A stretch of DNA of 64,000 nucleotides from Poseidonia sp. (GCA_965661285.1 CBFIDD010000001.1:530776-594775); one strand, 5' to 3'. Shown: positions 47,586-64,000, numbered from the stretch's first letter. Notes: generated by a model not told the origin, from the sequence alone. Numbers and translations: made by a program.

Positions 47586-50500
47586 TCAGAGGTCTTCGAG
47601 GTTCAACATGGTTGGAATTGCAGCCTCTTGCGCAGCTTGCTGTTGCATCTCGTGTTGCTTCCACTCCGGAAGACCTTCGGTGCCCTCCCAGCCCAGTGCT
47701 CGTGCTTCAGCATAATTGCCCTCAGCGATGTAGTGTTGAATCCAAGCCTGACGACGTTCTTCTTCTTCGGCAAAAGAGGCTTGCACCATTTGTTCATCTC
47801 GCTTCGCTGCCATCGCTTTCCGCTTTCCAGCGGCACGAGCGACCTGGGCTACGACGATCAATGCGAGCAGGAAGATGATCACCCCGCCCATCAACTGGAC
47901 CGTGCTGTTATCGCCACCCAAAAGGGAACCGCCGCCCTCTCCGTCGTTGGTTTGCAAACTTGGGTCGGAGGTGATGGCGCAATTGGCGGTGCTTCGAGCG
48001 CCTTCGGAGACCGCTGGGTCCCAGGGACACGGGTCGGCATCGTCCGATACACCGTCGTTATCGGCATCGGGACAGCCGTACTCGTCATTGGCGGTTGAGG
48101 TCCCAGGAACCTTTGGGCAGGCATCGGGTTGGTAGGCACCTGCGACGGCGTTATCCCCGAAGCCGTCGCCGTCGAAGTCATTCCACTGCGTAGCACGGAG
48201 CGGGAAGTTGTCCACGCGATTGGAACTGCTCTGATTGTCGCCCCAGCCATCGCCGTCAATGTCCGACCACTGGGTCGCAATCTCAGGGAATGCATCCCCG
48301 CGTTGTTCTCTCAAGGTGATGAACAAGCCAATGTTTTCTGAATCGGCTTCGGTGATGTTTTCCCAGTAGTAATTGTCGCCCCAGCCATCACCGTCAAAGT
48401 CGGACCACTGCTCGAAATCCTCAGGGAAGGCGTCGTCAACATCAGCGTACCCGTCAAGGTCGGCGTCGGGGCAACCTTGGCGACCTTCTTCGTAGGACTT
48501 CCCAAACACGTCCACGCAATCGTCTCCGTTGGGGACGTTCGTGTTGTCGCCATAGCCGTCGCCATCAGCATCGGCCCACTGGAAGGGGTCGTCTGGGAAA
48601 GCATCGAGCGGGTCGGTCACGCCGTCAAGGTCAGAATCGGGGCAGCCTCGGCTGGCAGGTTCTTGGGACTCACCGTATTCAAGCGGACAGACATCGCCCT
48701 TGGTGCCGTCGGCGTTGTCGCCGTAGCCATCGCCGTCCTCATCGCTCCACTGCGTGGGGTCGCTGGGGAAGGCATCGCCGTTGTTGCCACCGGGGTTGTC
48801 CCCGTAGCCGTCACCGTCGCTGTCCTTCCACTGACTGGTATCATCGGGGAACGCATCGGGGTTGTTTCCGCTGGCGTTATCGCCACGGTTATCGCCGTCT
48901 CGGTCCGACCATTGTGTGGCATCATCGGGGAAGGGGTCGCCTGCGTTGGAGTACCCGTCCCCGTCTCTGTCGGCACAACCAATGCGGTCGATGGTGGATG
49001 AGCCGGCGCTGTTCGGGCACACGTCCGGGTCGTTTCCGTCGGGATTGCTACCGAAACCATCACCGTCTTCGTCGCACCACTGTGTCGGGTCGTTTGGGAA
49101 GGCATCGGCGCCGTAGCAGTCGGGTGTGGTGGGCCAATTCGCCGTCGGGTCAGAATAGCCGTCGCCGTCGGTGTCCGGGCAGCCGAGACGGTCGTATTGG
49201 GAGTCTCCCCAAGCGTCGGGGCAGGCATCCGCACGGTCGCTGTTCTGGTTGTCCCCAATCCAATCACCGTCGCTGTCCATGTGTTGCGTTCGGTCAAGGG
49301 GGAAGGCGTCCGGCATGTTTGCAGCGGGCAAAAGCAGGCCTGGCCATGTCGGTGGCCGGTACGAGGTCCACGATGTGTTTTCGTAGTTATCGCCGAAGCC
49401 GTCACCGTCGGTATCGTTCCATTGGGTTGGATCGTTCGGGAAGGCATCACCGGTTTGGTTCACGTGGTACTGGTATTCGTCCACATCGAACAGGTAATTA
49501 TCGCCGTAGCCGTCTTCATCCGCATCGACCCACTGGTCCGGGTTGAGCGGGTCCCAATCGCCTGCATCGGACCAACCGTCGCCGTCGCTATCGGGGCAGC
49601 CAAACCGGTCTTCTGCCGAAGCACCGGGGGTGTTGGGGCAGGCATCAGGTTCGTTGGCCGGTGCGGGATTGTCGCCGAAACCATCGGCGTCCGTGTCGTT
49701 CCATTGCGTGCCGTCGGACGGGAAGGCGTCCACGATGCCATCGCCTTGGTCGGTGGTGTTGTAGCCGTCGTTGTCTTCATCGATATCGGCGTACCAGTAG
49801 TAAACGCCCTCATCGTTTCGGCCGTGAGCCGTGACGATGTGCGTGCTGTCCGGGCTCCATGCAACACCGTAGATCGTCCCGCACTGGTTGTTGTTTCCAG
49901 AAGTGCATCCACCGGGGCGAGGGCCGCTGAACGAATCCACTTGGACGCCGGTGTTGGAATGGTAGACCCTGGCCGTGGCGCCGTCGGTTTGGTACCAATA
50001 CATCCCCGAAATCACCTGCGAGCTGTCAGCGGAGAAGGTGGTTGATCCGCAAGAGGTGGAGGTTGTCTTTTGCCAGATGCGGTTCCATGCTCCGTTGGCA
50101 AACTGGTACATGTCAAAACTCGCCGATTGGCCTTCCCAACCGCCGCACATCGAGATGTAGTTCCCGTCGGGTGACCATGCGACCGCATTAACGGCGGCTG
50201 GAGGGTTGGTGAACGTCCACGTGGTCGCTCGTGAGGTCGTGTTGACGATGTAGATGTCGCCGTTGCCGGCCATGGCAATGTATTGGCCGTCGGGTGAATG
50301 TGCAAGGTCGTAGAAGCGGTCCTCACCGTTTGGATTGACAGCGTAAAGTTCCGTTCCCGTTTGCACGTCGATGACGGTCACTTCGCCGTTGGTTCCGCCG
50401 TTTCCTGAGCGGCCGATGGCCACGGCGACCGACGAACTGTCGGGTGAGAACTCAATCGCATTCACTTGGTCGCCACCACCAACGTCAACGCTGATGCTGC

Positions 50501-51011
50501 CGTGCAAAGAAGAGAGATTGTTGCTGTGGAAAATTTCAATGCTGTCGTCGTTGCGGGTGGCAGCAACATAATTTCCGTCGGGCGACCAATCCACGCCGAA
50601 AACGTCGGTTCCCGTGTTCGCCGACCGAAGGTTGGTCCACGTGCTGGCGTTCCAGATGCGAACGAAGTCGTCTTCCGAGCCGGTGACAATGAATTCGCCG
50701 TCGGGGGAATAATCCACGCTGTAGTAATCGTTGCTTGAACTGGTGGTGAATTCGTTTTGATAGTTCGGATTGCTGATGGCCCAAGCATCGTTGAAATCCG
50801 AGGTGCCGTCAGCGTCGCGGTCAGGGCATCCGTCCTTGTCGACCGTCGAAGTGCCCGAGGACCACGGACAATCATCAGCGCTGTCAAGGACGCCATCGCC
50901 GTCTGAATCAGCGGCTTGAGCGGCGAGGCTGACGACGGAAATCAAAAAGAAGAAGGCGAGCAGGAGGGAGGTGGATTTTGAAGACCGCTTGGCCGCGCCT
51001 GATTGTGCCAT
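47586..51011 (-). CDS. Surface protein: WD40 beta-propeller, thrombospondin type-3 repeats and a C-terminal TM
   Basis: About 7 [YWFH]SPDG blades, many DAFP.D..QW.D.DGDG.GDN repeats, signal peptide and TM. Confidence 0.93.
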   Translation of the reverse strand: MAQSGAAKRSSKSTSLLLAFFFLISVVSLAAQAADSDGDGVLDSADDCPWSSGTSTVDKDGCPDRDADGTSDFNDAWAISNPNYQNEFTTSSSNDYYSVDYSPDGEFIVTGSEDDFVRIWNASTWTNLRSANTGTDVFGVDWSPDGNYVAATRNDDSIEIFHSNNLSSLHGSISVDVGGGDQVNAIEFSPDSSSVAVAIGRSGNGGTNGEVTVIDVQTGTELYAVNPNGEDRFYDLAHSPDGQYIAMAGNGDIYIVNTTSRATTWTFTNPPAAVNAVAWSPDGNYISMCGGWEGQSASFDMYQFANGAWNRIWQKTTSTSCGSTTFSADSSQVISGMYWYQTDGATARVYHSNTGVQVDSFSGPRPGGCTSGNNNQCGTIYGVAWSPDSTHIVTAHGRNDEGVYYWYADIDEDNDGYNTTDQGDGIVDAFPSDGTQWNDTDADGFGDNPAPANEPDACPNTPGASAEDRFGCPDSDGDGWSDAGDWDPLNPDQWVDADEDGYGDNYLFDVDEYQYHVNQTGDAFPNDPTQWNDTDGDGFGDNYENTSWTSYRPPTWPGLLLPAANMPDAFPLDRTQHMDSDGDWIGDNQNSDRADACPDAWGDSQYDRLGCPDTDGDGYSDPTANWPTTPDCYGADAFPNDPTQWCDEDGDGFGSNPDGNDPDVCPNSAGSSTIDRIGCADRDGDGYSNAGDPFPDDATQWSDRDGDNRGDNASGNNPDAFPDDTSQWKDSDGDGYGDNPGGNNGDAFPSDPTQWSDEDGDGYGDNADGTKGDVCPLEYGESQEPASRGCPDSDLDGVTDPLDAFPDDPFQWADADGDGYGDNTNVPNGDDCVDVFGKSYEEGRQGCPDADLDGYADVDDAFPEDFEQWSDFDGDGWGDNYYWENITEADSENIGLFITLREQRGDAFPEIATQWSDIDGDGWGDNQSSSNRVDNFPLRATQWNDFDGDGFGDNAVAGAYQPDACPKVPGTSTANDEYGCPDADNDGVSDDADPCPWDPAVSEGARSTANCAITSDPSLQTNDGEGGGSLLGGDNSTVQLMGGVIIFLLALIVVAQVARAAGKRKAMAAKRDEQMVQASFAEEEERRQAWIQHYIAEGNYAEARALGWEGTEGLPEWKQHEMQQQAAQEAAIPTMLNLEDL

Positions 51012-53803: not shown

Positions 53804-54898
53804 ATCCAAATCCTCGTCGTGAGTTTGCTCTATCCCGTCCCGCTCAACCCCACGCGCGGGGTCTTCGTCGAGGACCATGTGCGATTGCTCAGCGAAATGG
53901 GCCACGAGGTCAAGGTGGTCAACCCGCTTCCTCGGATGCCAAAATACGCTGAGACTCGGCGCTCGACCATGATGGGTGTCTCAAAAGCCCCCCGAAGATG
54001 GACCCATCAAGACGTGGACATCTTGGTGCCCCGTTTCTTCGCCCTGCCCGACCACCCGTATCCGAGACTGACCGCCAGCAGCATTTCCCGTCGTGCAGGC
54101 TGGGTGGAAAAGAACCTCGGCTCATGGCGCCCCGACATCATCGTCTGCCACACCCTTTGGCCAGTCGCCGAACTGGCTGAACGCCTTGCACAGCGGTGGG
54201 GTTGCCCCTGGGTGGGCGTGGTTCACGGCTACGATGTTGACGTCGGCCTCACCCTCAAGGGCGTCGGTGAGCGAATCAAGACCGCCGCAAGGTCCTGCTC
54301 GGCCTTGGTTTGCGCCTCCCAGCGACTTGCCGAGCGAACGAATGAGATCACCCCGGCGCCACGCCGAGTGGAAACCATTCCGTGCGTCACGAACATCGAA
54401 CGGGAATGGCGACGTCAGGTAAGGCCGATGAAAAAGGCCTGGAAAAAAGAGCCCATTGACATCCTGTTTCCCGCAGACCCACGACGCCCGGAAAAGCGGC
54501 ATCTCTTGGCCCTGCAAACCGGCGAGGTCTTGGAAGCACGCGGTTGGGTCGTCGGCATCACTTCGCTACGCCACCAGCCCAGAAACATCGTGTATGACCG
54601 GATGTTGACCGCAGACGTGACCCTCATCACGTCAAAGCGAGAAGCGGGACCTCTGGTGGCCAGAGAATCGCTTCTCTGCGGCACGCCCGTGGTCAGCGTG
54701 GACGTGGGCGAAGTGGCCACCTACCTGCCCGACGCGTGGGTATGCGATGAAGACCCTGAGAAACTGGCCGACGGCATCGAATCGGCTCTGCGAACGGGTT
54801 GGAAGGAAGAAGAACCGGTGGAGGACCGCCTGGGCTTTGCATCGACCGAAACGGTCACGCAAGCGTGGACCGAACTGCTCGCCAGCCTTGTTTCGTGA
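53804..54898 (+). CDS. Glycosyltransferase family 4 (GT-B); probable ATC start
   Basis: [I]QILVVSLLYP...GVFV, PDIIVCH, VVHG.D, S..E..PLV..E...CGTPVVS.DVG. Confidence 0.85.
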   Translation: MQILVVSLLYPVPLNPTRGVFVEDHVRLLSEMGHEVKVVNPLPRMPKYAETRRSTMMGVSKAPRRWTHQDVDILVPRFFALPDHPYPRLTASSISRRAGWVEKNLGSWRPDIIVCHTLWPVAELAERLAQRWGCPWVGVVHGYDVDVGLTLKGVGERIKTAARSCSALVCASQRLAERTNEITPAPRRVETIPCVTNIEREWRRQVRPMKKAWKKEPIDILFPADPRRPEKRHLLALQTGEVLEARGWVVGITSLRHQPRNIVYDRMLTADVTLITSKREAGPLVARESLLCGTPVVSVDVGEVATYLPDAWVCDEDPEKLADGIESALRTGWKEEEPVEDRLGFASTETVTQAWTELLASLVS

Positions 54899-56309
54899 AC
54901 AAGAACAGGGGCAAACCCAGCAACCACCAGAAGGTCTGCGTGGCCAATCCGGCAACGATCAATCCCGTGCAAAGAAGAACCAGCGCCCACTCATCTTGGC
55001 GGGCACGAACCGTTGGTAATTCGCTGCTCATCCACCATGAAAGCACCAAAAGCACGCCCGCCGAAAGGCTGCTTGCGACGGCTGCTGCATACAATTTCGC
55101 ACCGTTCTCCTCCGGTCCGTTCAACACCAGCCCTGCACCCAAAACAACAGCGGCAAGCAGAACCAGGAGGATGAAGAGCGTAAAACGCCAAGGCCGGTGG
55201 CCGGCCATCAAACTGGCATAGGTCGGCGTGGCCAACAAGGTGAAGCCCCATCCTGCCAACAAGACGGTGAAGAGGTCGACCGCAGAAGCGCCGTGGGTGC
55301 CATCAAGGTAAGCGGCAGGGAAGGCGATGGGGGCAAGAACACGCACAACGAGGTAGCCACCAAACAAACCGTAAGGCAGCAATCCAAAGCACATGTCAGT
55401 GGCGTGATGAAGCTCTCTGCGATGCTCGGCGGGGTTATTTCGTGCCCGACCGAACACCGGGAGGAGAGCGGAACGGATAGCGGCCGGTACCACAAGCCCC
55501 GCCAACCAAACGAGTTGCGCCACGTGAAACACGGCTCCGAGCGTCGCTCCCCCCGAGGCGGCGACCATGAATTTCTCAATACGCACCACGTAGGGAAGAA
55601 TCCCCAAGGTGATGGCGAAGGGCAACGCTGAGAGCAACAGCGCCTTCGAGGACGACCAACTTACCCCCAAATCGCTCCACGAACCGGAGGCGGGGCGTTT
55701 GGGAGCGGTGCGCACCAACCAAAAGAGCGCCAAGAGCCAGCCCGCTGTGGCCCCCAGAAGAAACGCTGCCGTGTAAGCCGTTGGGGAGGTCGCTCCTTGC
55801 GAGGCCAGCACGGCATAAGCGGCCACCGTCAAGCCGCGCTCAACCACCTTCGTCATCGCCTCAAGGCGGGCCTCGCCCAACACCCGAAGCCCCGAACGAG
55901 GGGCGTAGGAGGCGACGTGAACCAGCGCCACCAACCCTGCCAATGTCAGCAGCATGGTTGGCGCACCGATGTTGAGCCAGTCCTCCGGACGAGCGAGAAC
56001 CGCGAGCGAAACGAAGGGAACGGCTGCGATCGCCTGCCACCGATAGGTACGCCAAACGGCCGGTCTGACCATGCCGGGGGCTTTCGTGCCGTCCCGCGCA
56101 ATGAGGGTCGGTAAACCGAGGTCAACGATCAAGAACAACGAGGCATAGAGGTCGATGGCGAGCACCATCCACCCGTATTGTTCCTCCAAGAGGGCGTGGG
56201 TCAGGAAAATTTGGCCGATGAAGGCCAGAGCGACCGCCAACAGGTCGGCGCCAACCAACCACGAAGCGTCCCGCCCGCTGGAAGGGGTGCGGTGGGCTTG
56301 CTCGCTCAT
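54855..56309 (-). CDS. Oligosaccharide flippase (Wzx/MOP superfamily)
   Basis: E.YG, DLGLPTL.AR, LPF, roughly 12-14 TM helices. Confidence 0.85.
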   Translation of the reverse strand: MSEQAHRTPSSGRDASWLVGADLLAVALAFIGQIFLTHALLEEQYGWMVLAIDLYASLFLIVDLGLPTLIARDGTKAPGMVRPAVWRTYRWQAIAAVPFVSLAVLARPEDWLNIGAPTMLLTLAGLVALVHVASYAPRSGLRVLGEARLEAMTKVVERGLTVAAYAVLASQGATSPTAYTAAFLLGATAGWLLALFWLVRTAPKRPASGSWSDLGVSWSSSKALLLSALPFAITLGILPYVVRIEKFMVAASGGATLGAVFHVAQLVWLAGLVVPAAIRSALLPVFGRARNNPAEHRRELHHATDMCFGLLPYGLFGGYLVVRVLAPIAFPAAYLDGTHGASAVDLFTVLLAGWGFTLLATPTYASLMAGHRPWRFTLFILLVLLAAVVLGAGLVLNGPEENGAKLYAAAVASSLSAGVLLVLSWWMSSELPTVRARQDEWALVLLCTGLIVAGLATQTFWWLLGLPLFLFTKQGWRAVRSTLA

Positions 56310-56667: not shown

Positions 56668-57270
56668 TCATGAATCGTCGTCGATCTTGAGTTCTCGCGC
56701 CCGGTGCATGGCGTCGTCGGTGGTAAACCAAAATGTCGGTGTTTCTCCCAATTCAGCGTCCCAATGTTGGACTGCACGGGCAAACATTTCGCCCTCTGTG
56801 TTGGCTTTTGCCCATTCGAGCATCCACGCCATGTGCGCCTGAAGCTCTGGGTCATCGTCTGACTGCCGTTTCAAAATTTCAGCGGAAAGCGAGATGATAG
56901 CGACCCAAATGGGCGTTAGGGAATGTGTCACATAGGGGTTTCGCTCCATAGCAACGGTGCTGTACTCGTTCCATAGAGAGAAGACCTGGTCGTACAGGAA
57001 ACCAACGGTCAGGACGCCAAGCATCACGCTGCAGAAAATCGTGATCAAACCGAGGTATGTGGCCGGGATGCCCAAAAGTTCCTGTTCAAAACAAATAGTA
57101 GAGCTTCCGCAGCCGGGCTCAAACCGCCAACGAACGTACGGCCAAACCAGAAGGGTGATGGTTGTGCCCCAGAGAAGCAGGCTGACAACGGCTTGGGATT
57201 GCTGCATGCGCCAGTATTGGCGCATCGCCCATTTTTTGAAAAATGACTCCGATTCCGACGACTCCGCCAT
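56668..57270 (-). CDS. Hypothetical membrane protein
   Basis: 200 aa, 2-3 TM helices. Confidence 0.78.
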   Translation of the reverse strand: MAESSESESFFKKWAMRQYWRMQQSQAVVSLLLWGTTITLLVWPYVRWRFEPGCGSSTICFEQELLGIPATYLGLITIFCSVMLGVLTVGFLYDQVFSLWNEYSTVAMERNPYVTHSLTPIWVAIISLSAEILKRQSDDDPELQAHMAWMLEWAKANTEGEMFARAVQHWDAELGETPTFWFTTDDAMHRARELKIDDDS

Positions 57271-57321: not shown

Positions 57322-58155
57322 TCAAACGTTCCATCCGCGCTGACGAAGGTCGTCCACGAAGCGTTCTTTGTTATTCGGTTGAACCTCGATTTGAAGATAG
57401 AGTGCGACGTCGTCGTAGCCTCCAAGAATGACATTGGGCAGGTCGAGATATTCAAGCTTCCAGCCCAACATATGGTCAGCGATGTAGGACAACCAAATAT
57501 CTTCGATAAACAGCGCATCAGGTGGATGGTCAAAGAGCACATCGTTGGAAAAGAGGCTGAGGTCCACCATACTCACGCCCGTTCCGCAATAGTCTACCCG
57601 TTCACCACGGTTCAGGACCCGTGTACGATCTTCGGGGAGTTTGTACGGTTTCCCGTTGAGGCGCCAGGCCCACCAAGATTTGTAGGTGTTCGGTTCGTAT
57701 TGTCTCAAGGCCGTTTCAACGTGCTGAGCAGAAAAATGAACATCGTCATCAAGGAACAAAATGACATCGTACCCCTCTTCGTGAAGGCGACGACTGAGGT
57801 CAAAGCGGCGGAATCCCATTCGGTCATTGGACGTGTGAAGGACGCGTATATCCATGGCCTCTTGGTACGGTTTGACCGTAGAATCGATGAAGGAAGACAT
57901 TTCTGGATTTGAATTTGAAATAAAGAGGGTGAAATCAGAGCAGGTTTGCACCGAAAGGGCAGCCATTGAAGTTTCAAACATGGCTTGGCGTTTCCAAGTC
58001 AACAGGAGCACGGCGACCTTGAGACCACCCTCCGGACGGTAACGGGGAAGAGTATGTGCGCGCTTGTTGATGCCACGTAGATGTTTGAACTCACGATTCC
58101 GGCGGTAGGTTCCGATGAGGTTTTTGACAAACTGAAGGGGATGGCGCTTCTTGAT
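57322..58155 (-). CDS. GT-A fold glycosyltransferase (GT2-like); probable ATC start
   Basis: KVAVLLLTWKR, FLDDD (DxD), CGTG, EDIWLS. Frame stays open upstream of the tracked GTG to a stop at 58168-58170. Confidence 0.8.
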   Translation of the reverse strand: MKKRHPLQFVKNLIGTYRRNREFKHLRGINKRAHTLPRYRPEGGLKVAVLLLTWKRQAMFETSMAALSVQTCSDFTLFISNSNPEMSSFIDSTVKPYQEAMDIRVLHTSNDRMGFRRFDLSRRLHEEGYDVILFLDDDVHFSAQHVETALRQYEPNTYKSWWAWRLNGKPYKLPEDRTRVLNRGERVDYCGTGVSMVDLSLFSNDVLFDHPPDALFIEDIWLSYIADHMLGWKLEYLDLPNVILGGYDDVALYLQIEVQPNNKERFVDDLRQRGWNV

Positions 58156-58272: not shown

Positions 58273-58602
58273 TTAGGATTGACGTCCGGCGTCAAACATC
58301 TCACGCAGGCTGCCGTCTTGCAGCATCTCGAGCGCGATGTCCGACCCGCCGATGAGCTCGCCGTGGACAAAGACTTGAGGCATGGTGGGGAAATCCGACC
58401 ACGCACAGATGGACGGAATGGCGCGAGCGTCGCTGAGGACGTTCACGGAAGCGAACTCTTCGCCCAGCGATTGGAGCACCTGGGCGGCACGGTTGGAGAA
58501 ACCGCACTGTGGCTGGTTGGGGCTGCCCTTCATGAAAAGGACAAGCGGGTGTTCGTCGACGAGGCTTTGCAGTTCTTCTGGGGTCCAGTTCATGGGGTTC
58601 AC
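58273..58602 (-). CDS. grxD: Monothiol glutaredoxin (Grx4)
   Basis: LFMKG.P..PQCGFS, PT.PQVF..GELIGG.DI. Confidence 0.95.
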   Translation of the reverse strand: MNPMNWTPEELQSLVDEHPLVLFMKGSPNQPQCGFSNRAAQVLQSLGEEFASVNVLSDARAIPSICAWSDFPTMPQVFVHGELIGGSDIALEMLQDGSLREMFDAGRQS

Positions 58603-58916
58603 TCCTTGTTTCTCTGTATGCGGCGGATGTGGACGCCTTGCCCGCCGCCGTGCGGGTCAAAGGCCGTGTCGCCGGCCGTTTCGGCCTGAGCGGGGGTCAT
58701 GCACTTGAGGTCAAGTGCGTGAATTGGATGGGGAATGTGCTGCTTCATGACCGCCAAGACTTGCTTCTGGCGCTGAAGCGGACGGACGCCCTCGAAGGTT
58801 TCGGAGATGATGCGGACGTGGAAATGGTCGCCTGAACCGTGAAGGTCGATGACTTCAACCGTGGCTTCAGGCACAGCCTTGAGGACCTCGGCTTCTATCC
58901 ACGCTGCCTCCACCAT
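58599..58916 (-). CDS. bolA: BolA family protein
   Basis: G.GDHF...IIS..FEG...LQRQ, IHAL.LK..TP; adjacent to grxD. Confidence 0.93.
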   Translation of the reverse strand: MVEAAWIEAEVLKAVPEATVEVIDLHGSGDHFHVRIISETFEGVRPLQRQKQVLAVMKQHIPHPIHALDLKCMTPAQAETAGDTAFDPHGGGQGVHIRRIQRNKE

Positions 58917-58978
58917 GCTCACGCCTCAACATAGCGTACCTTCGCACCTTCTTTGAACCTGCGCCCGAACATCCCGGC

Positions 58979-60226
58979 TTACTCGCTTGCAAGTTTTGCA
59001 AGAATCGTCTCCACGCCGGTGGCTTTCTTCACGCGCAACCAGGGTTCAAGCGTGCGGGTTTCCATGTCCTGTTTGAGCCGTTTCGTGCCGCCGCCACTGA
59101 TGTTGAGCAGAATGCAGTCGTCCTTGTCGACCTCACCCGATTCAATCGCCTGCAGAAGACTGGCGGCCGCAACGGCGCTCGAGGTCATCACGTCAATGCC
59201 CTCGATGGATTCGATCGTCTCACGGGCGGCGATGGCATCGGCTCGCTCAACGACGTAGGTTTGACCCTTCGACGCCTTGAGGATGTCGTGAACGGCGCCA
59301 ACCTGGCCGTAGGCCGGGCCTTTGTTCATCAGATAGTCCGAATAGACCTCCACGTCATGTGGAGGGAAATCCTCGTCCACCAAATGGTCTCGCCCGGCTT
59401 GCCATGCACGGTGGATGGGGTGGTGTTCGATGTTCTGAGACAGGTGCTGTCGAGGAGCGGGGCCCTCAAACAATCCCGCCTCGATGAGGCGTTCGGCCAT
59501 TTCATGGATGCCGATGGGGCCCGGGCCGCCACCGATGCCTTGGAAATAGTGGTCGGGTAGGCGACCGATGGTGTAGGCGGCGTCGATGATCAGGCTGCCA
59601 ATGCCGTCGCGACGGGCGACGTTGTGGACGCTTCCTTCCATTTGCCATCCTGGCAGTTGAGCACCGATACCTTTGGCCACCGTCTTGGCGTCGTAGTAGT
59701 CGCCGTCCTCAACGACCACCAAGCGGACGCTCTGTGCGGGGTTTTCCGGGCGCGCCCAGACGCGGTCGCCGTGGTCCTTGCCCACGACCACGATGAGCGG
59801 GGTATCGTCGAGCCCACAGAAATGCGTGAAGCCGCGCGCCGTGTTGCCCGCACTGGCCACGATGAGGCCCTTGACGCCGTGGTCGTGCATGCGCTGGATG
59901 GTGGGAACCGCTTCCATGTCCTTGAAACTCCCCGTGGGGCAAGCGCCGCCTTTTTCCGGCCAGTAACCGTTGAAGGACACCCAGAGATTGGACAGGCCCA
60001 TCGCCTCGCCCAGGGCTTCGGCTCGGTAGGTCACCGTGCCGGCGACGTAGTCGTTGGCTTTGGAGGTCGGGAGCCAAGAAAGGAAGTTCCAAACGCCTAT
60101 GGCCTCGGATTGGAGTACGAAGGGTTCGTTGTACACCGCGCGGAGCAGGGCGTTGTCCGTGTAGTGAAGCGTGTAGTTGTCGTTGAGAAGGTCGCCTGTC
60201 TTCAGGCACTTGAGTTGATATTTCAT
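58979..60226 (-). CDS. Cysteate synthase (PLP-dependent, threonine-synthase family)
   Basis: FNGYWPEKG, TGSFKDMEA, ASAGNTAR, NVARRDG, G.LPDHYFQ, LLNISGGG. Confidence 0.85.
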   Translation of the reverse strand: MKYQLKCLKTGDLLNDNYTLHYTDNALLRAVYNEPFVLQSEAIGVWNFLSWLPTSKANDYVAGTVTYRAEALGEAMGLSNLWVSFNGYWPEKGGACPTGSFKDMEAVPTIQRMHDHGVKGLIVASAGNTARGFTHFCGLDDTPLIVVVGKDHGDRVWARPENPAQSVRLVVVEDGDYYDAKTVAKGIGAQLPGWQMEGSVHNVARRDGIGSLIIDAAYTIGRLPDHYFQGIGGGPGPIGIHEMAERLIEAGLFEGPAPRQHLSQNIEHHPIHRAWQAGRDHLVDEDFPPHDVEVYSDYLMNKGPAYGQVGAVHDILKASKGQTYVVERADAIAARETIESIEGIDVMTSSAVAAASLLQAIESGEVDKDDCILLNISGGGTKRLKQDMETRTLEPWLRVKKATGVETILAKLASE

Positions 60227-60344
60227 TCTTTCACCATGCCAAAGAACTTGGCGATGGCTCTCCGTCCGGGGGCTGTGGTATAACTCTTGGTCAATAGAAC
60301 AGGGAAAGTGGTGCAAACGGTTGAGCGCTTGGGCCTGTCAATCT

Positions 60345-61799
60345 TCAGAATCTGAAATAGATGAAGTCGATGGTTTCTGCCGGCCGAAGATAGAACGCTA
60401 AGCACAACATGGTGCCGCACGCTGCCCCCCATACAACCGGATGTTGTCGAGCAAGCCATGCTTTGCCCCCACCAATTTTTCCGCTCAATCCATGAAGAAG
60501 AATGAAACACGCTGCAAGGGCGAAGGTGAGGAACTTGATCTCAGGGAGAAACTCGTACCCTTCTTTCCAATCAAAGTGCCCGCCCCAGCCCACGAAGGTC
60601 TTCATCGACGGGATGAGCACGGCCGTGTCTTCGACTCTGAAAATCAGCCACGTAAAGAACACGAAGAACTGGGTGACCACCCATGAGATGAGCATCCCGA
60701 CACGCCCCGATGCTCCAAAGAAGCGCTTGATAAAGGAAATGTCCTTGCCGAATCGATGAACGATGAGCAGCAAACCGTGAACAAAACCCCAGAGGACGAA
60801 ATTCCACGAGGCTCCGTGCCACAAACCGCCCAGAAGCATCGTCATCATCAGTGCGAAAATCATGCGATTTCGGCCGTTCCTCGAACCTCCCAACGGAATG
60901 TAGAGATAATCACGCAACCAAGTGGACAGCGAAATGTGCCAGCGCCGCCAGAAATCTTGTGGAGATGTGGCGCCGTAGGGCGTTTTGAAGTTCTCAGGAA
61001 GTTCCACCCCGATGAGGTGGGCTGAGCCGATGGCGATGTCGGTGTAGGCGGAGAAATCACAGTAAATTTGGATCCCGAAGCAAAGGGTGGCCCACCAAAT
61101 CAAGCCGATATTGGCGAGATGTTCGCCCTCAACGAACACCTCGTTGGCATGAACCGCGACATTGTCTGCAATGACCAATTTCTTGGCGATGCCGTAGATG
61201 ATGAGGGTCAAGCCCAATCTGAAACGATAGGCGGAAGGGGCTAACGGCTCCTTGATTTGCGCTCGGAAATGGTCGGCTCGGACGATCGGGCCTGCCACGA
61301 GTTGAGGGAAGAAGGCTGCATAACAGGCAAAATCAAGGAAGGAATCGTAAGGGGACTGTTTCTTTCGATAGATGTCGATGGTGTACGACATCGTTTGGAA
61401 GGTGTAGAAGGAAATCCCCACCGGCAGGGCCAGTCCCAATGTTCCAACATCCAAGCCATCCGTGAAACGCAAGGAGACGAGGTTCCAACTTTCAATGAGG
61501 AAATCGAGGTACTTGAACACCCCAAGCAAGGACAGGTTGGTCACCAAACTGATGCGAAGCCATCGTTTCCGGTGAGCAGCGTCCTCGGACTCGTGCATTT
61601 TCCGTCCTGCCGTCCAGTCAATGCACGTTGAGATCAACAGCAAAATCAGGTGCCAGCCCGAAGCCAGCCAAAAGAACACATAGCTCATGACCAGAAGGAT
61701 GAGCACCTGTCGGCGACGATGCCTGGAAGCGATGCCGAACGTGATAAGAAACACCAGCGGAAGGAAAGAGAGATAATACGACGGCGTTACAAAATCCAA
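60345..61799 (-). CDS. MBOAT family O-acyltransferase (AlgI/DltB-like)
   Basis: LPVGISFYTFQTMSY, FFPQLVAGPI, QIYCDFSAY, FWRRWHISLSTWLRDYLYIPLGG, GLWHGA.WNFVLWG, FIYFRF. Confidence 0.95.
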   Translation of the reverse strand: MDFVTPSYYLSFLPLVFLITFGIASRHRRRQVLILLVMSYVFFWLASGWHLILLLISTCIDWTAGRKMHESEDAAHRKRWLRISLVTNLSLLGVFKYLDFLIESWNLVSLRFTDGLDVGTLGLALPVGISFYTFQTMSYTIDIYRKKQSPYDSFLDFACYAAFFPQLVAGPIVRADHFRAQIKEPLAPSAYRFRLGLTLIIYGIAKKLVIADNVAVHANEVFVEGEHLANIGLIWWATLCFGIQIYCDFSAYTDIAIGSAHLIGVELPENFKTPYGATSPQDFWRRWHISLSTWLRDYLYIPLGGSRNGRNRMIFALMMTMLLGGLWHGASWNFVLWGFVHGLLLIVHRFGKDISFIKRFFGASGRVGMLISWVVTQFFVFFTWLIFRVEDTAVLIPSMKTFVGWGGHFDWKEGYEFLPEIKFLTFALAACFILLHGLSGKIGGGKAWLARQHPVVWGAACGTMLCLAFYLRPAETIDFIYFRF

Positions 61800-61803
61800 G
61801 CCA

Positions 61804-62919
61804 TCACCTCAGTTGTTCGTTCAGTACGTTTGCTATTCGCTCGCAGGCATAGATTCGACCCGTATCTCCGAGGTGATTTCGGTCACGAAACATCCCCTGC
61901 TCCCATGATTCCCAAAACCAGTTAACGGGTGTTGCACCGTACATTTCGTTGAGGTGGGCCAATGTTGTGTTGTGTCCGTCGATTTGCCCAGGTGAAAGGT
62001 AGTTGTACACGAGTGGATGATGAGGAGTTGCGAGCATGAAGACTTGGATGCCTGCTTCGGTCAGCGCATGAACGGTGTATTCCAACGCTGCGTGGTTGAG
62101 TGTTCCGTTATGATGAGGGTTATACACCCCGTATTTCACGCGCTTCGGCATGTTCTCAGAGAACCATGCATCCACCTCGGTTTGATTTTTCAACTCGAAC
62201 AGCGGGGGCAAATAGCCGGGGGTTTGCAGGTAATCCAACCAACCTTCGTCACCAACTCCGGGCATGTCTCTGTCAATGTATGTCACGCCCAATTCATCGT
62301 GGAATTCTGCGGCCAAGGCATTGTCGAGTGCGACCTGGGAATACGAAGCAGTGAGCTGAATTCGTTCTTCCAAACTCGAAGCGATGTAAGGCTTGTCTCT
62401 GTCGCGTATCAAATGACTCCAACCTTCTTCATTCCCCAACCCAAGCGTCAGACTCAAGATGGTAAATCGAAATTCTATGTATTCATCAAGGCTGTCGGAT
62501 TCGTAAAAATCCCAGAGTGAATTTGGACCAACATCAACAATCACAGCCTTTGGTTTTGCTTTGATCAGTGATGGAACCTGAATCATTTCTGTGTACGGGT
62601 TCGCACCGCCGATGGCCAAATTGTACACCTTGGTTTTGTCATCGTCAAGGTGTTCACCGATGCATGTGCCGTGCGTGGCGTATTGGAGGATGGAGGATCC
62701 AATCACAACAACAGCGTCACTTTCCTCACCTGCAATGGATTCCAAGGCTGGGTGAGTCACTGCATAACGGCCACTGCGTATGAAATTCCCTTCAATAAGG
62801 CCGTCGTTGACCACGGTTGGCACCACTGAGCCTGAAAGGAACAGAAACACGACGAGTAGGGACCCCATACTCACCGCAAACTGTCCGGTGGACAACATAG
62901 GAGACTCCATTCTCTGCAT
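61804..62919 (-). CDS. Membrane-anchored SGNH-like protein (AlgJ/DltD-like MBOAT partner)
   Basis: N-terminal TM, VVIGSS, YNLAIGG, C-terminal FRDRNHL (DxxH). Confidence 0.75.
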   Translation of the reverse strand: MQRMESPMLSTGQFAVSMGSLLVVFLFLSGSVVPTVVNDGLIEGNFIRSGRYAVTHPALESIAGEESDAVVVIGSSILQYATHGTCIGEHLDDDKTKVYNLAIGGANPYTEMIQVPSLIKAKPKAVIVDVGPNSLWDFYESDSLDEYIEFRFTILSLTLGLGNEEGWSHLIRDRDKPYIASSLEERIQLTASYSQVALDNALAAEFHDELGVTYIDRDMPGVGDEGWLDYLQTPGYLPPLFELKNQTEVDAWFSENMPKRVKYGVYNPHHNGTLNHAALEYTVHALTEAGIQVFMLATPHHPLVYNYLSPGQIDGHNTTLAHLNEMYGATPVNWFWESWEQGMFRDRNHLGDTGRIYACERIANVLNEQLR

Positions 62920-63003
62920 CTACCGTGGTTTCCGGTGGCCCGTCGGTGTTTAACGTTCCTCACCGATTGAGGCTGAAGGACGGAAAAACGAGACCGAGAG
63001 CAA

Positions 63004-64000
63004 TCACGAGAAGAGGGGGCGGCCGACGGCAAAACACTGCCACCCTATTCTCTCAAGCGCTTCCAAGTCAAGGACGCGGCGGCCGTCATAGATGCGTGGT
63101 GTCTCCATTTGCTGGGCGAGCGCCTCCCAGTCCAACTCAACGCAGGCCTTGTGCGCCGTGACGAGAACGGTGAGATGATGGCCCTGGGCCTGAGATAAAT
63201 CGGTGATGGCGTCCACCGATTCGGGGAAGGTTTCGGGGTCGATGTGCGGGTCGTAAACGCTGACGTCAATACCGCGTTGCTGAAGCGCTTCTGCCAGCGG
63301 TTCCGCAGGCGTTTCACGAGGGTCGCCCACTTCGGCTTTGTAGGACCATCCGAGGAAGAGCACCTTGGTGGACTCGGCCGACAATCCGGCCTTCCACAAA
63401 ATGTCCACGAGCACTTGTGCGACGTGGTTGGGCATGGAACGGTTGACGGCTCGAGCGGCGGTGATGAGGCCGGCAGGTACGCCGACATCGGCCGCTCGCT
63501 GAATCATGTAGTACGGGTCCACGGGAATGCAGTGGCCGCCCACACCAACACCGGGCGTGTAGCGATGGAAGTTCCACTTTGTCGCCGCTGCCGATAGCAC
63601 GTCCTCCACGTCCACGTCCATGGCGGGGAAGATACGAGCAAGTTCGTTGACCAGCGCGATGTTGATGTCACGCTGGACGTTTTCGATGACCTTGGCGGCC
63701 TCAGCGACTTCGAGCTTGCCGACGTAGCGCACGTCTTCGCTCGTCAGCATGCTGTAGAGTTCCACCAATGCGTGACCGACGTCTTCGTTTGAACAGCCGA
63801 TGACGCGAGCCACGGAACGAACACCGTGGGCAGCATCGCCGGGGTTGAACCGCTCAGGGCAGTAAGCAATGGACACGTCCTCGCCGATAACCAAGCCGAG
63901 TTCCTCAACAATGGGCAGCCATGTTTGAGCCGTCACGCCGGGATAGACGGTGGATTCGAGCACCACGATGGTGTTCGAGCCCTTTGGAATCGCCTCGAAC
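63004..64000 (-). CDS. Nucleotide-sugar dehydrogenase (WecC/TviB-like), 5' end outside window
   Basis: ESTVYPG.T, PER.NPG, AEAAK..EN..RD.NIAL.NE, PGVGVGGHCIPVDPYY, D.RETP. Confidence 0.93.
   Translation of the reverse strand, partial: FEAIPKGSNTIVVLESTVYPGVTAQTWLPIVEELGLVIGEDVSIAYCPERFNPGDAAHGVRSVARVIGCSNEDVGHALVELYSMLTSEDVRYVGKLEVAEAAKVIENVQRDINIALVNELARIFPAMDVDVEDVLSAAATKWNFHRYTPGVGVGGHCIPVDPYYMIQRAADVGVPAGLITAARAVNRSMPNHVAQVLVDILWKAGLSAESTKVLFLGWSYKAEVGDPRETPAEPLAEALQQRGIDVSVYDPHIDPETFPESVDAITDLSQAQGHHLTVLVTAHKACVELDWEALAQQMETPRIYDGRRVLDLEALERIGWQCFAVGRPLFS

Follow-up and report, generated by a model that had tools for sequence, protein, structure and literature searches.

Cysteate synthase in a flexible glycan island of Poseidoniaceae suggests a surface glycan decorated with a sulfonated amino acid

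Cysteate synthase (CS) reportedly acts in the coenzyme M route of Methanosarcinales, a role attributed to work by Graham et al. (2009). AlgI/AlgJ and DltB/DltD are pairs made up of an MBOAT protein and an SGNH-like partner, of which DltB/DltD transfer D-alanine, and the amine donors of Campylobacter are made from phosphorylated three-carbon precursors. In Bacteroidota, a cysteate synthase step belongs to the synthesis of sulfonolipids (capnine/sulfobacin; PMC11211663). In the HS:2 capsule of Campylobacter jejuni, the C-terminal TupA-like ATP-grasp of Cj1438 amidates glucuronic acid at its C6 carboxylate (PMC11800379), and in the N-glycan of Methanococcus voltae threonine is found at position 6 of N-acetylmannosaminuronic acid (ManNAcA), according to a review that names no ligase for it (PMC2952790). 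Here we describe a gene at 58979-60226 of a 64,000-nucleotide stretch of Poseidonia sp. DNA (GCA_965661285.1, CBFIDD010000001.1:530776-594775; hereafter, the window). The CS that it encodes is part of a flexible cell-surface glycan island of the Poseidoniaceae (marine group IIa), and its presence in such an island suggests a surface glycan decorated with a sulfonated amino acid.

The assignment of this gene as a true cysteate synthase is, on sequence criteria, solid. Its product scores above the TIGR03844 cut-off (Table 1), while all ThrC models remain far below theirs, the best reaching 82.1 bits against a cut-off of 303. The best solved relative is 9k3c, an entry named 'Cysteate synthase', which aligns over residues 3-396 with 260 bits; solved ThrC structures score at most 43 bits. 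In a tree rooted on five ThrC-like proteins from other Poseidoniales genera, 50 CS-family rows formed a single clade (support 100), with the window CS nested inside it. For this tree 31 of 81 rows (long branches and near-duplicates) were removed beforehand, and a separate 81-row tree was built without the outgroup. The window CS retains every one of the 11 columns that are invariant in an alignment of 46 family sequences, and K102 in its FK motif, the lysine expected from the ThrC family to bind pyridoxal 5'-phosphate (PLP), is conserved in at least 90% of those sequences.

The window CS thus resembles the Methanosarcinales enzymes and 9k3c in its equivalog score, its full-length alignment and its position in the same clade relative to ThrC. 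It differs from the Methanosarcinales enzymes in sequence (40-44% identity), in the glycan-island context, and in the long branch (1.05) that Poseidoniaceae and Rhodothermales share, apart from the clades with Methanosarcina and Bacteroidales. The nearest relatives outside Poseidoniaceae form a small Rhodothermales/Bacteroidota clade at 51-52% identity. A further difference is the lack of ComD: since TIGR03845 had no match in the window's genome (G000, 93% complete; ComE and later steps were not searched for), no coenzyme M route is apparent, as a sequence-only reading of this DNA had supposed.

Within that genome, the CS is the sole PALP-fold (PF00291) protein found. The PF00291 search revealed no threonine synthase, cysteine synthase (CysK/CysM), tryptophan synthase beta subunit or threonine dehydratase, and no homoserine kinase was found there. 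Because the gene has family-level evidence as a CS, is alone in its fold and lacks a homoserine kinase to go with it, a threonine synthase role is unlikely. We rejected that role on the TIGR03844 and ThrC scores, the rooted tree, the 9k3c match and the missing kinase; phylogeny, equivalog score and solved structure all agree with the sequence-only reading, which had placed the protein in the CS family. From its family membership, the enzyme would be expected to form L-cysteate from O-phosphoserine and sulfite, and a SerA-like dehydrogenase, a possible start of phosphoserine synthesis, is present in the genome. Public records already carry 'cysteate synthase' as the name of this gene. In the literature we found no discussion of CS in marine group II (MGII), nor 'Poseidoniales' together with 'cysteate'; supplements of MGII genome papers may list the gene.

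The setting of the gene was examined by comparing 49 distinct CS-bearing Poseidoniaceae loci (51 rows, 2 of them duplicates). Loci are designated L, genomes G and genera g, each with a number. We counted as island genes the flippase, GT4, dehydrogenase, MBOAT, ATP-grasp and DUF6395 genes, and these were present in 44 of the 49 loci. In 20 of the 27 loci that have the nucleotide-sugar dehydrogenase, this gene lies directly upstream of CS in the same orientation, at a distance of only 6-20 nt in L033, L076, L162, L175 and L176; these five short gaps, together with a 20-nt gap between an ATP-grasp gene and CS in L172, indicate operon coupling. Other genes found directly upstream on the same strand were the MBOAT (11 of 49), a distant SGNH-like gene (2 of 49) and the TupA-like ATP-grasp (1 of 49); divergently oriented upstream genes were the flippase (4 of 49) and BolA (1 of 49). 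Four loci had nothing recognised upstream despite at least 1.2 kb of flanking sequence, and in six the upstream side was not visible. Of the island genes, it is the uronic-acid-forming dehydrogenase, and not the MBOAT pair, to which CS is most closely tied.

Of the six genera that carry CS, five (g1, g15, g20, g22 and g23) showed glycan-island placement, the single g19 locus, L172, lying in a different polysaccharide locus. Beyond the dehydrogenase, relatives have a pair of ABC-2 exporter genes and multi-domain glycosyltransferases of very large size. None of 67 CS loci from other lineages had glycan-type neighbours. The surface-glycan setting next to a nucleotide-sugar dehydrogenase, which had been proposed from the window by itself, is thus borne out across the family. 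In the window the dehydrogenase is truncated at its 5' end, because the end of the window is also the end of contig C1. A full-length orthologue (L036:4185-5606) reaches 382 bits with TIGR03026, and the equivalogs nearest to it, archaeal UDP-ManNAc dehydrogenase at 259 bits and TviB at 253 bits, fall short of their cut-offs. The window gene probably encodes a UDP-N-acetylhexosamine dehydrogenase yielding a uronic acid.

Two protein families of the island are candidates for attaching cysteate to such a sugar. The first is a TupA-like ATP-grasp (PF14305), found in 13 of the 49 loci. In genus g1 it lies just past the BolA and glutaredoxin (Grx) genes, together with DegT-type sugar aminotransferases. 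In L172 (g19) a GT2/TPR giant comes first, followed by the ATP-grasp, the 20-nt gap, CS, DUF6395 and then a sugar epimerase/dehydratase, and an ABC-2 exporter adjoins these genes. The L172 ATP-grasp (L172:8340-9122), a type that recurs in L076, shares only 21% identity with the g1 type (as at L033:6655-7650), from which we conclude that ATP-grasp and CS became associated at least twice. These proteins belong to the same Pfam family as the Cj1438 domain and have a dehydrogenase that forms uronic acid, glycosyltransferases and an ABC-2 exporter among their neighbors; unlike Cj1438, the archaeal ATP-grasps are free-standing, with no GT2 domain fused to them, and the window's genome has none. Cysteate, the amine donor proposed here, is not known to be used by this family. 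The M. voltae N-glycan is a second precedent, being an archaeal surface glycan with an amino acid on the carboxylate of an N-acetylhexuronic acid, although that amino acid is threonine instead of cysteate and brings no sulfonate. We rate the TupA-like ATP-grasp a better candidate than the MBOAT pair for attaching cysteate.

The second family, DUF6395, recurs in the islands, at L036:225-1376, at L172:10475-11755 and in six more loci; L036 and L041, which both have it, are the loci of MBOAT type most like the window's. Its proteins have an invariant SGGxDS PP-loop and a CxxCWKC cysteine cluster, and a structural model (mean predicted local distance difference test score, pLDDT, 71) matches QueC, TilS and other PP-loop ATPases. 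The model suggests an adenylating function and, with it, a second ligase candidate, including in loci of the window's type. Clusters resembling DUF6395 in a protein atlas have many viral members.

The proposed mechanism would have three steps. CS would supply L-cysteate by the reaction given above; the adjoining nucleotide-sugar dehydrogenase would, judging by its family, make an (N-acetyl)hexuronic acid; and an ATP-dependent amidoligase would join cysteate, through its amino group, to the C6 carboxylate of this acid, giving a sulfonate-bearing glycan. The ligase, in what is the least certain step, would be the TupA-like ATP-grasp where it is present and perhaps the PP-loop protein DUF6395 in loci like the window's. 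We favor this predicted amide linkage of cysteate to a uronic acid in a surface glycan, the MBOAT pair being a separate O-acylation option, and we put this reading as a whole at a little under an even chance. Such a use of cysteate would be a new variation on the known amidation of uronic acids with amino acids. Our literature search found no report of taurine- or cysteate-amidated uronic acids, and a looser search gave only general accounts of archaeal glycosylation.

The CS gene is distributed patchily. The CS cut-off was passed in 46 of 151 genomes of the family (6 of 12 genera) and in 23 of 61 genomes of the order, every one of the latter in the window's genus; in the 24 genomes of two other families of the order, matches stayed at the ThrC level, none above 85 bits. 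In G023 the order is dehydrogenase, BolA, Grx and flippase with nothing between them, so CS is truly absent there, and G009 and G006 likewise have no CS at the BolA-Grx site. Other seeming absences are contig breaks beside BolA-Grx. Because its presence is patchy, with real absences at the same site, CS is an accessory gene of a flexible region, and its pattern of presence and absence is typical of the accessory genes of glycan islands. In L178 a second, divergent CS copy (L178:10362-11468, 53% identity, genus g20) adjoins a phage-type integrase, and in L165 an insertion with an EcoRI-like restriction enzyme and a D12 methyltransferase separates CS from BolA-Grx (L165:10438-13467); these two cases point to an insertion hot spot.

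Two further observations concern the quality of the public sequences. A contig titled as a Verrucomicrobiales bin (L067) carries a Poseidoniaceae island that shares its ATP-grasp and DegT proteins with L033, and the bin label is probably wrong. In L041/L024 (G008:C1) the dehydrogenase, SGNH, MBOAT, CS and Grx genes are broken into several frame pieces with internal stops, which looks like assembly error and not decay.

The gap of 118 nt between the MBOAT and CS genes had been noted earlier as a reason for caution about co-transcription. We confirmed the gap, and the caution is justified by what it contains. A TFIIB recognition element (BRE)/TATA-like element lies at about 60277-60290 (minus strand), approximately 55 nt before the CS start codon, and a GGTGA ribosome-binding site at 60231-60235 (minus strand) is preceded immediately by a 5-bp leader hairpin at 60238-60252 (minus strand). 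In the hairpin 87% of cells are paired, five of five pairs show compensatory changes, and none of 500 shuffles reaches the observed value. An alignment of 13 upstream regions shows that the spacer of approximately 100 nt and the promoter-like element are kept whether the upstream gene is the MBOAT, the dehydrogenase or another gene. Because these elements travel with the gene regardless of what precedes it, CS acts as a self-contained expression cassette. In loci of this type we infer that it is transcribed from its own predicted promoter.

Several results weigh against cysteate amidation of the glycan. With this spacer, CS need not be co-transcribed with its neighbors. No gene accompanies CS in all loci, and 25 of the 49 show neither ATP-grasp nor MBOAT in the available DNA. 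The four loci L049, L075, L177 and L178, each with 1.2 kb or more of upstream flank, are outside recognised glycan context; L075 has an MFS efflux pump of the DHA2 type and an MscS channel as neighbors, and in L177 CS lies near a catalase-peroxidase. The sister CS genes of Rhodothermales adjoin an amino-acid permease, not glycan genes. The ATP-grasp also occurs in G009, which lacks CS. In the window's genome, whose island is partly assembled, PF14305 had no match and no ligase is visible in the assembled part; the rest of the island, beyond the dehydrogenase, was looked for on other contigs and not found, and is unassembled.

Nor was a source of sulfite found. Targeted family searches of the window's genome, as distinct from a scan of the whole proteome, found no ATP sulfurylase (PF01747), 3'-phosphoadenosine-5'-phosphosulfate reductase, NIR_SIR (PF01077) or Xsc (TIGR03457), and no TauD (PF02668), cysteine dioxygenase (CDO, PF05995) or luciferase-like monooxygenase (PF00296); as to sinks for sulfite, no sulfite oxidase (PF00174) was found. 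The PF01507 search matched only a GuaA-type protein, and no persulfide dioxygenase-rhodanese fusion was seen among the metallo-beta-lactamase proteins screened. The apparent lack of sulfate assimilation is in line with a published report that it is missing from marine group IIa genomes (PMC6864105).

The main rival explanation is that cysteate stays free. That is, cysteate, or taurine after decarboxylation, would serve as a solute, an exported metabolite or a sulfite trap, and the island would be nothing but an insertion hot spot. The conserved promoter-like element and leader of CS, the want of an obligate partner, the surroundings of L075 and L177, the integrase in L178, the permease beside the Rhodothermales genes and the missing sulfite oxidase all count in its favor. 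So does a group II PLP decarboxylase that could turn cysteate into taurine (G000:C6:100066-101481; nearest model 2,4-diaminobutyrate (DABA) decarboxylase, 254 bits, below cut-off; beside glycine-cleavage genes), which is present in 32 of 36 genus-g1 genomes as against just 3 of the other 24 genomes of the order. However, the decarboxylase is also found in G023, G006 and G009, where CS is missing, and no sulfite-producing pathway was found that would call for detoxification. The placement of 44 of 49 loci in a glycan island and the operon-like gaps to the dehydrogenase and, in L172, to the ATP-grasp also speak against it. We consider free cysteate rather unlikely.

It is improbable, in our estimation, that CS uses another nucleophile in vivo, such as sulfide or thiosulfate, and converts phosphoserine to cysteine or S-sulfocysteine. 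Its position as the only PALP-fold enzyme found, with no CysK, CysM or ThrC beside it, would suit this role, as would the missing sulfite source, the published lack of sulfate assimilation in marine group IIa and the long branch that sets the Poseidoniaceae and Rhodothermales enzymes apart. Against this stand the score above a curated equivalog cut-off, the full-length alignment to a solved CS and the retention of every family-invariant column. Moreover, at least three congeners have no CS at the corresponding site, and the cut-off was passed in less than a third of the family's genomes, a distribution ill suited to an essential amino-acid enzyme.

The sequence-only reading had given the MBOAT/SGNH pair the role of moving a cysteate-derived acyl group onto a polymer in the manner of DltB/DltD. 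The pair has the two-gene architecture of AlgI/AlgJ and DltB/DltD; the MBOAT has a clear family match (Table 1), its best solved relative is DltB (6bug, 83 bits), and a histidine in its WHISLS stretch, recognised by eye, is presumably catalytic. The partner has DltD-like motifs, with G74-S75-S76 and D346/H349 invariant in six orthologues, and its orthologue in L077 reaches 31.8 bits with DltD, above the 22.7-bit cut-off. Against PDB profiles the partner gave nothing significant (E 0.12-1.4), and its AlphaFold model (pLDDT 55) was too poor for use. The MBOAT lies directly upstream of CS even in L077, the most divergent locus (58% CS identity). However, it scores 160.5 bits with the DltB equivalog TIGR04091, far under the cut-off of 375, and is therefore not a DltB orthologue; the host is an archaeon, and the locus contains no carrier or adenylation gene (no DltC-type carrier was found there; DltA was not searched for). 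The only PP-binding domains found, three in tandem in one 2946-aa frame (G000:C1:295104-296009), an arrangement unusual for an archaeon, lie approximately 295 kb away.

Nor is the pair the fixed partner of CS that it had been taken for. It is present in 13 of the 49 CS loci and 36 show no MBOAT; conversely, it occurs without CS in G020 (two copies), in G037 and G057 (other genera) and in G009, where the order in L149 is dehydrogenase, SGNH and MBOAT with no CS in the following 1.8 kb. Because each occurs without the other, the pair and CS are independent modules of the same island. Most likely the pair O-acylates the same polymer as an optional, separate module, and a Dlt-like transfer of cysteate by it is unlikely, to the point that we give it little weight.

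As to sulfonolipids, the lineage resembles the Bacteroidota in being non-methanogenic, in the first reaction expected of its CS, and in that the Bacteroidales CS falls in the same family tree; it differs in having no condensing enzyme linked to CS. A capnine-like sulfonolipid, also put forward earlier, is the least likely fate of all, for which one could cite a CS gene tail to tail with a CDP-alcohol phosphatidyltransferase in L049 and a single BioF/Kbl-type acyltransferase in the window's genome (TIGR01825 476.5 bits, CFB-type serine palmitoyltransferase model 347.9 bits), except that this acyltransferase is below every cut-off, lies approximately 550 kb from CS beside unrelated genes and is a core gene found in 59 of 61 relatives regardless of CS (60-97% identity), and that none of its type lies within 8 kb of CS at 67 non-Poseidoniaceae loci.

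The remaining features of the window are listed in Table 1. The dehydrogenase, SGNH-like, MBOAT and CS genes form a co-oriented run on the minus strand, as had been described. Directly downstream of CS on the same strand are BolA and Grx, missing from the earlier gene list. BolA is found at the island site of relatives both with and without CS, and Grx is 75-98% identical across loci. A functional link between CS and BolA-Grx was considered and rejected, since BolA-Grx is present without CS and is inverted relative to CS in many loci.

Table 1. Features of the glycan island in the window, with coordinates counted from its first nucleotide
Feature	Coordinates	Strand	Evidence
Nucleotide-sugar 6-dehydrogenase, 5' end lost	63004..64000	-	TIGR03026 276.5 bits (cut-off 189.8); three UDPG_MGDP_dh Pfam domains
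SGNH/DltD-like protein, N-terminal membrane anchor, MBOAT partner	61804..62919	-	Lipase_GDSL_2 22.7 bits (E 1.5e-4), DltD 17.1 bits (E 3.8e-3), both below cut-off
MBOAT-family membrane O-acyltransferase, AlgI/DltB type	60345..61799	-	PF03062 116.2 bits (gathering score 27)
Spacer, 118 nt, with BRE/TATA-like element, leader hairpin and GGTGA site	60227..60344	-	Alignment of upstream regions
Cysteate synthase (CS), 415 aa, PLP enzyme	58979..60226 from ATG	-	TIGR03844 416.8 bits (cut-off 324.9)
BolA-like protein, conserved island anchor gene	58599..58922	-	PF01722 53.9 bits
Glutaredoxin (Grx), BolA-paired	58273..58602	-	PF00462 52.1 bits; CGFS motif by eye
Small glycosyltransferase-like protein, variable island slot	57322..58011	-	Weak matches: HpsN E 8.6e-4, GT64 E 0.096
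200-aa membrane protein, conserved, family unassigned	56668..57270	-	Present in most genus-g1 loci, 64-72% identity
Wzx-like polysaccharide flippase	54855..56309	-	PF01943 (Polysacc_synt) 26.8 bits (cut-off 28.2)
GT4-family glycosyltransferase	53819..54898	+	Glyco_transf_4 54.1 bits, Glycos_transf_1 35.5 bits

Farther downstream, the GT2, flippase and GT4 genes of the sequence-only reading were recovered in part. The flippase falls just below its cut-off, with an orthologue in L077 at 43.8 bits for PF01943; the supposed GT2 gene has only the weak HpsN and GT64 matches; and the GT4 gene stands on the opposite strand, beyond the minus-strand run, followed by a ribulose-phosphate epimerase and a STAND ATPase. 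The slot of the small glycosyltransferase-like protein holds, in relatives, ATP-grasp and DegT genes, or LicD, or nothing. The 200-aa membrane protein has no match in Pfam or NCBIfam. Farther along the minus strand, positions 47586-51011 encode a predicted surface protein of 1141 aa that has, by eye, a signal-like N-terminus, many acidic repeats of the D-x-D-x-D-G type and a C-terminal membrane anchor; it is strongly variable, at 35-82% identity between relatives.

Under any reading there is a puzzle, in that a lineage in which none of the sulfite routes searched for was found keeps an enzyme that should need sulfite. Few planktonic archaea of the surface ocean are as abundant as the Poseidoniaceae. 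Marine group II is uncultured, and a CS in a glycan island gives a concrete, testable handle on its cell-surface chemistry. Tentatively, we picture Poseidoniaceae as coated with a glycan whose uronic acids may be amidated with cysteate, the presence of CS being one axis along which the 'glycotype' of strains may vary. If cysteate amidation is correct, cysteate would have a third biological use, in addition to coenzyme M and sulfonolipids, and the archaeal envelope would bear a negatively charged sulfonate. The marine sulfonate cycle would then have an archaeal source and a new pool of particulate organosulfonate.

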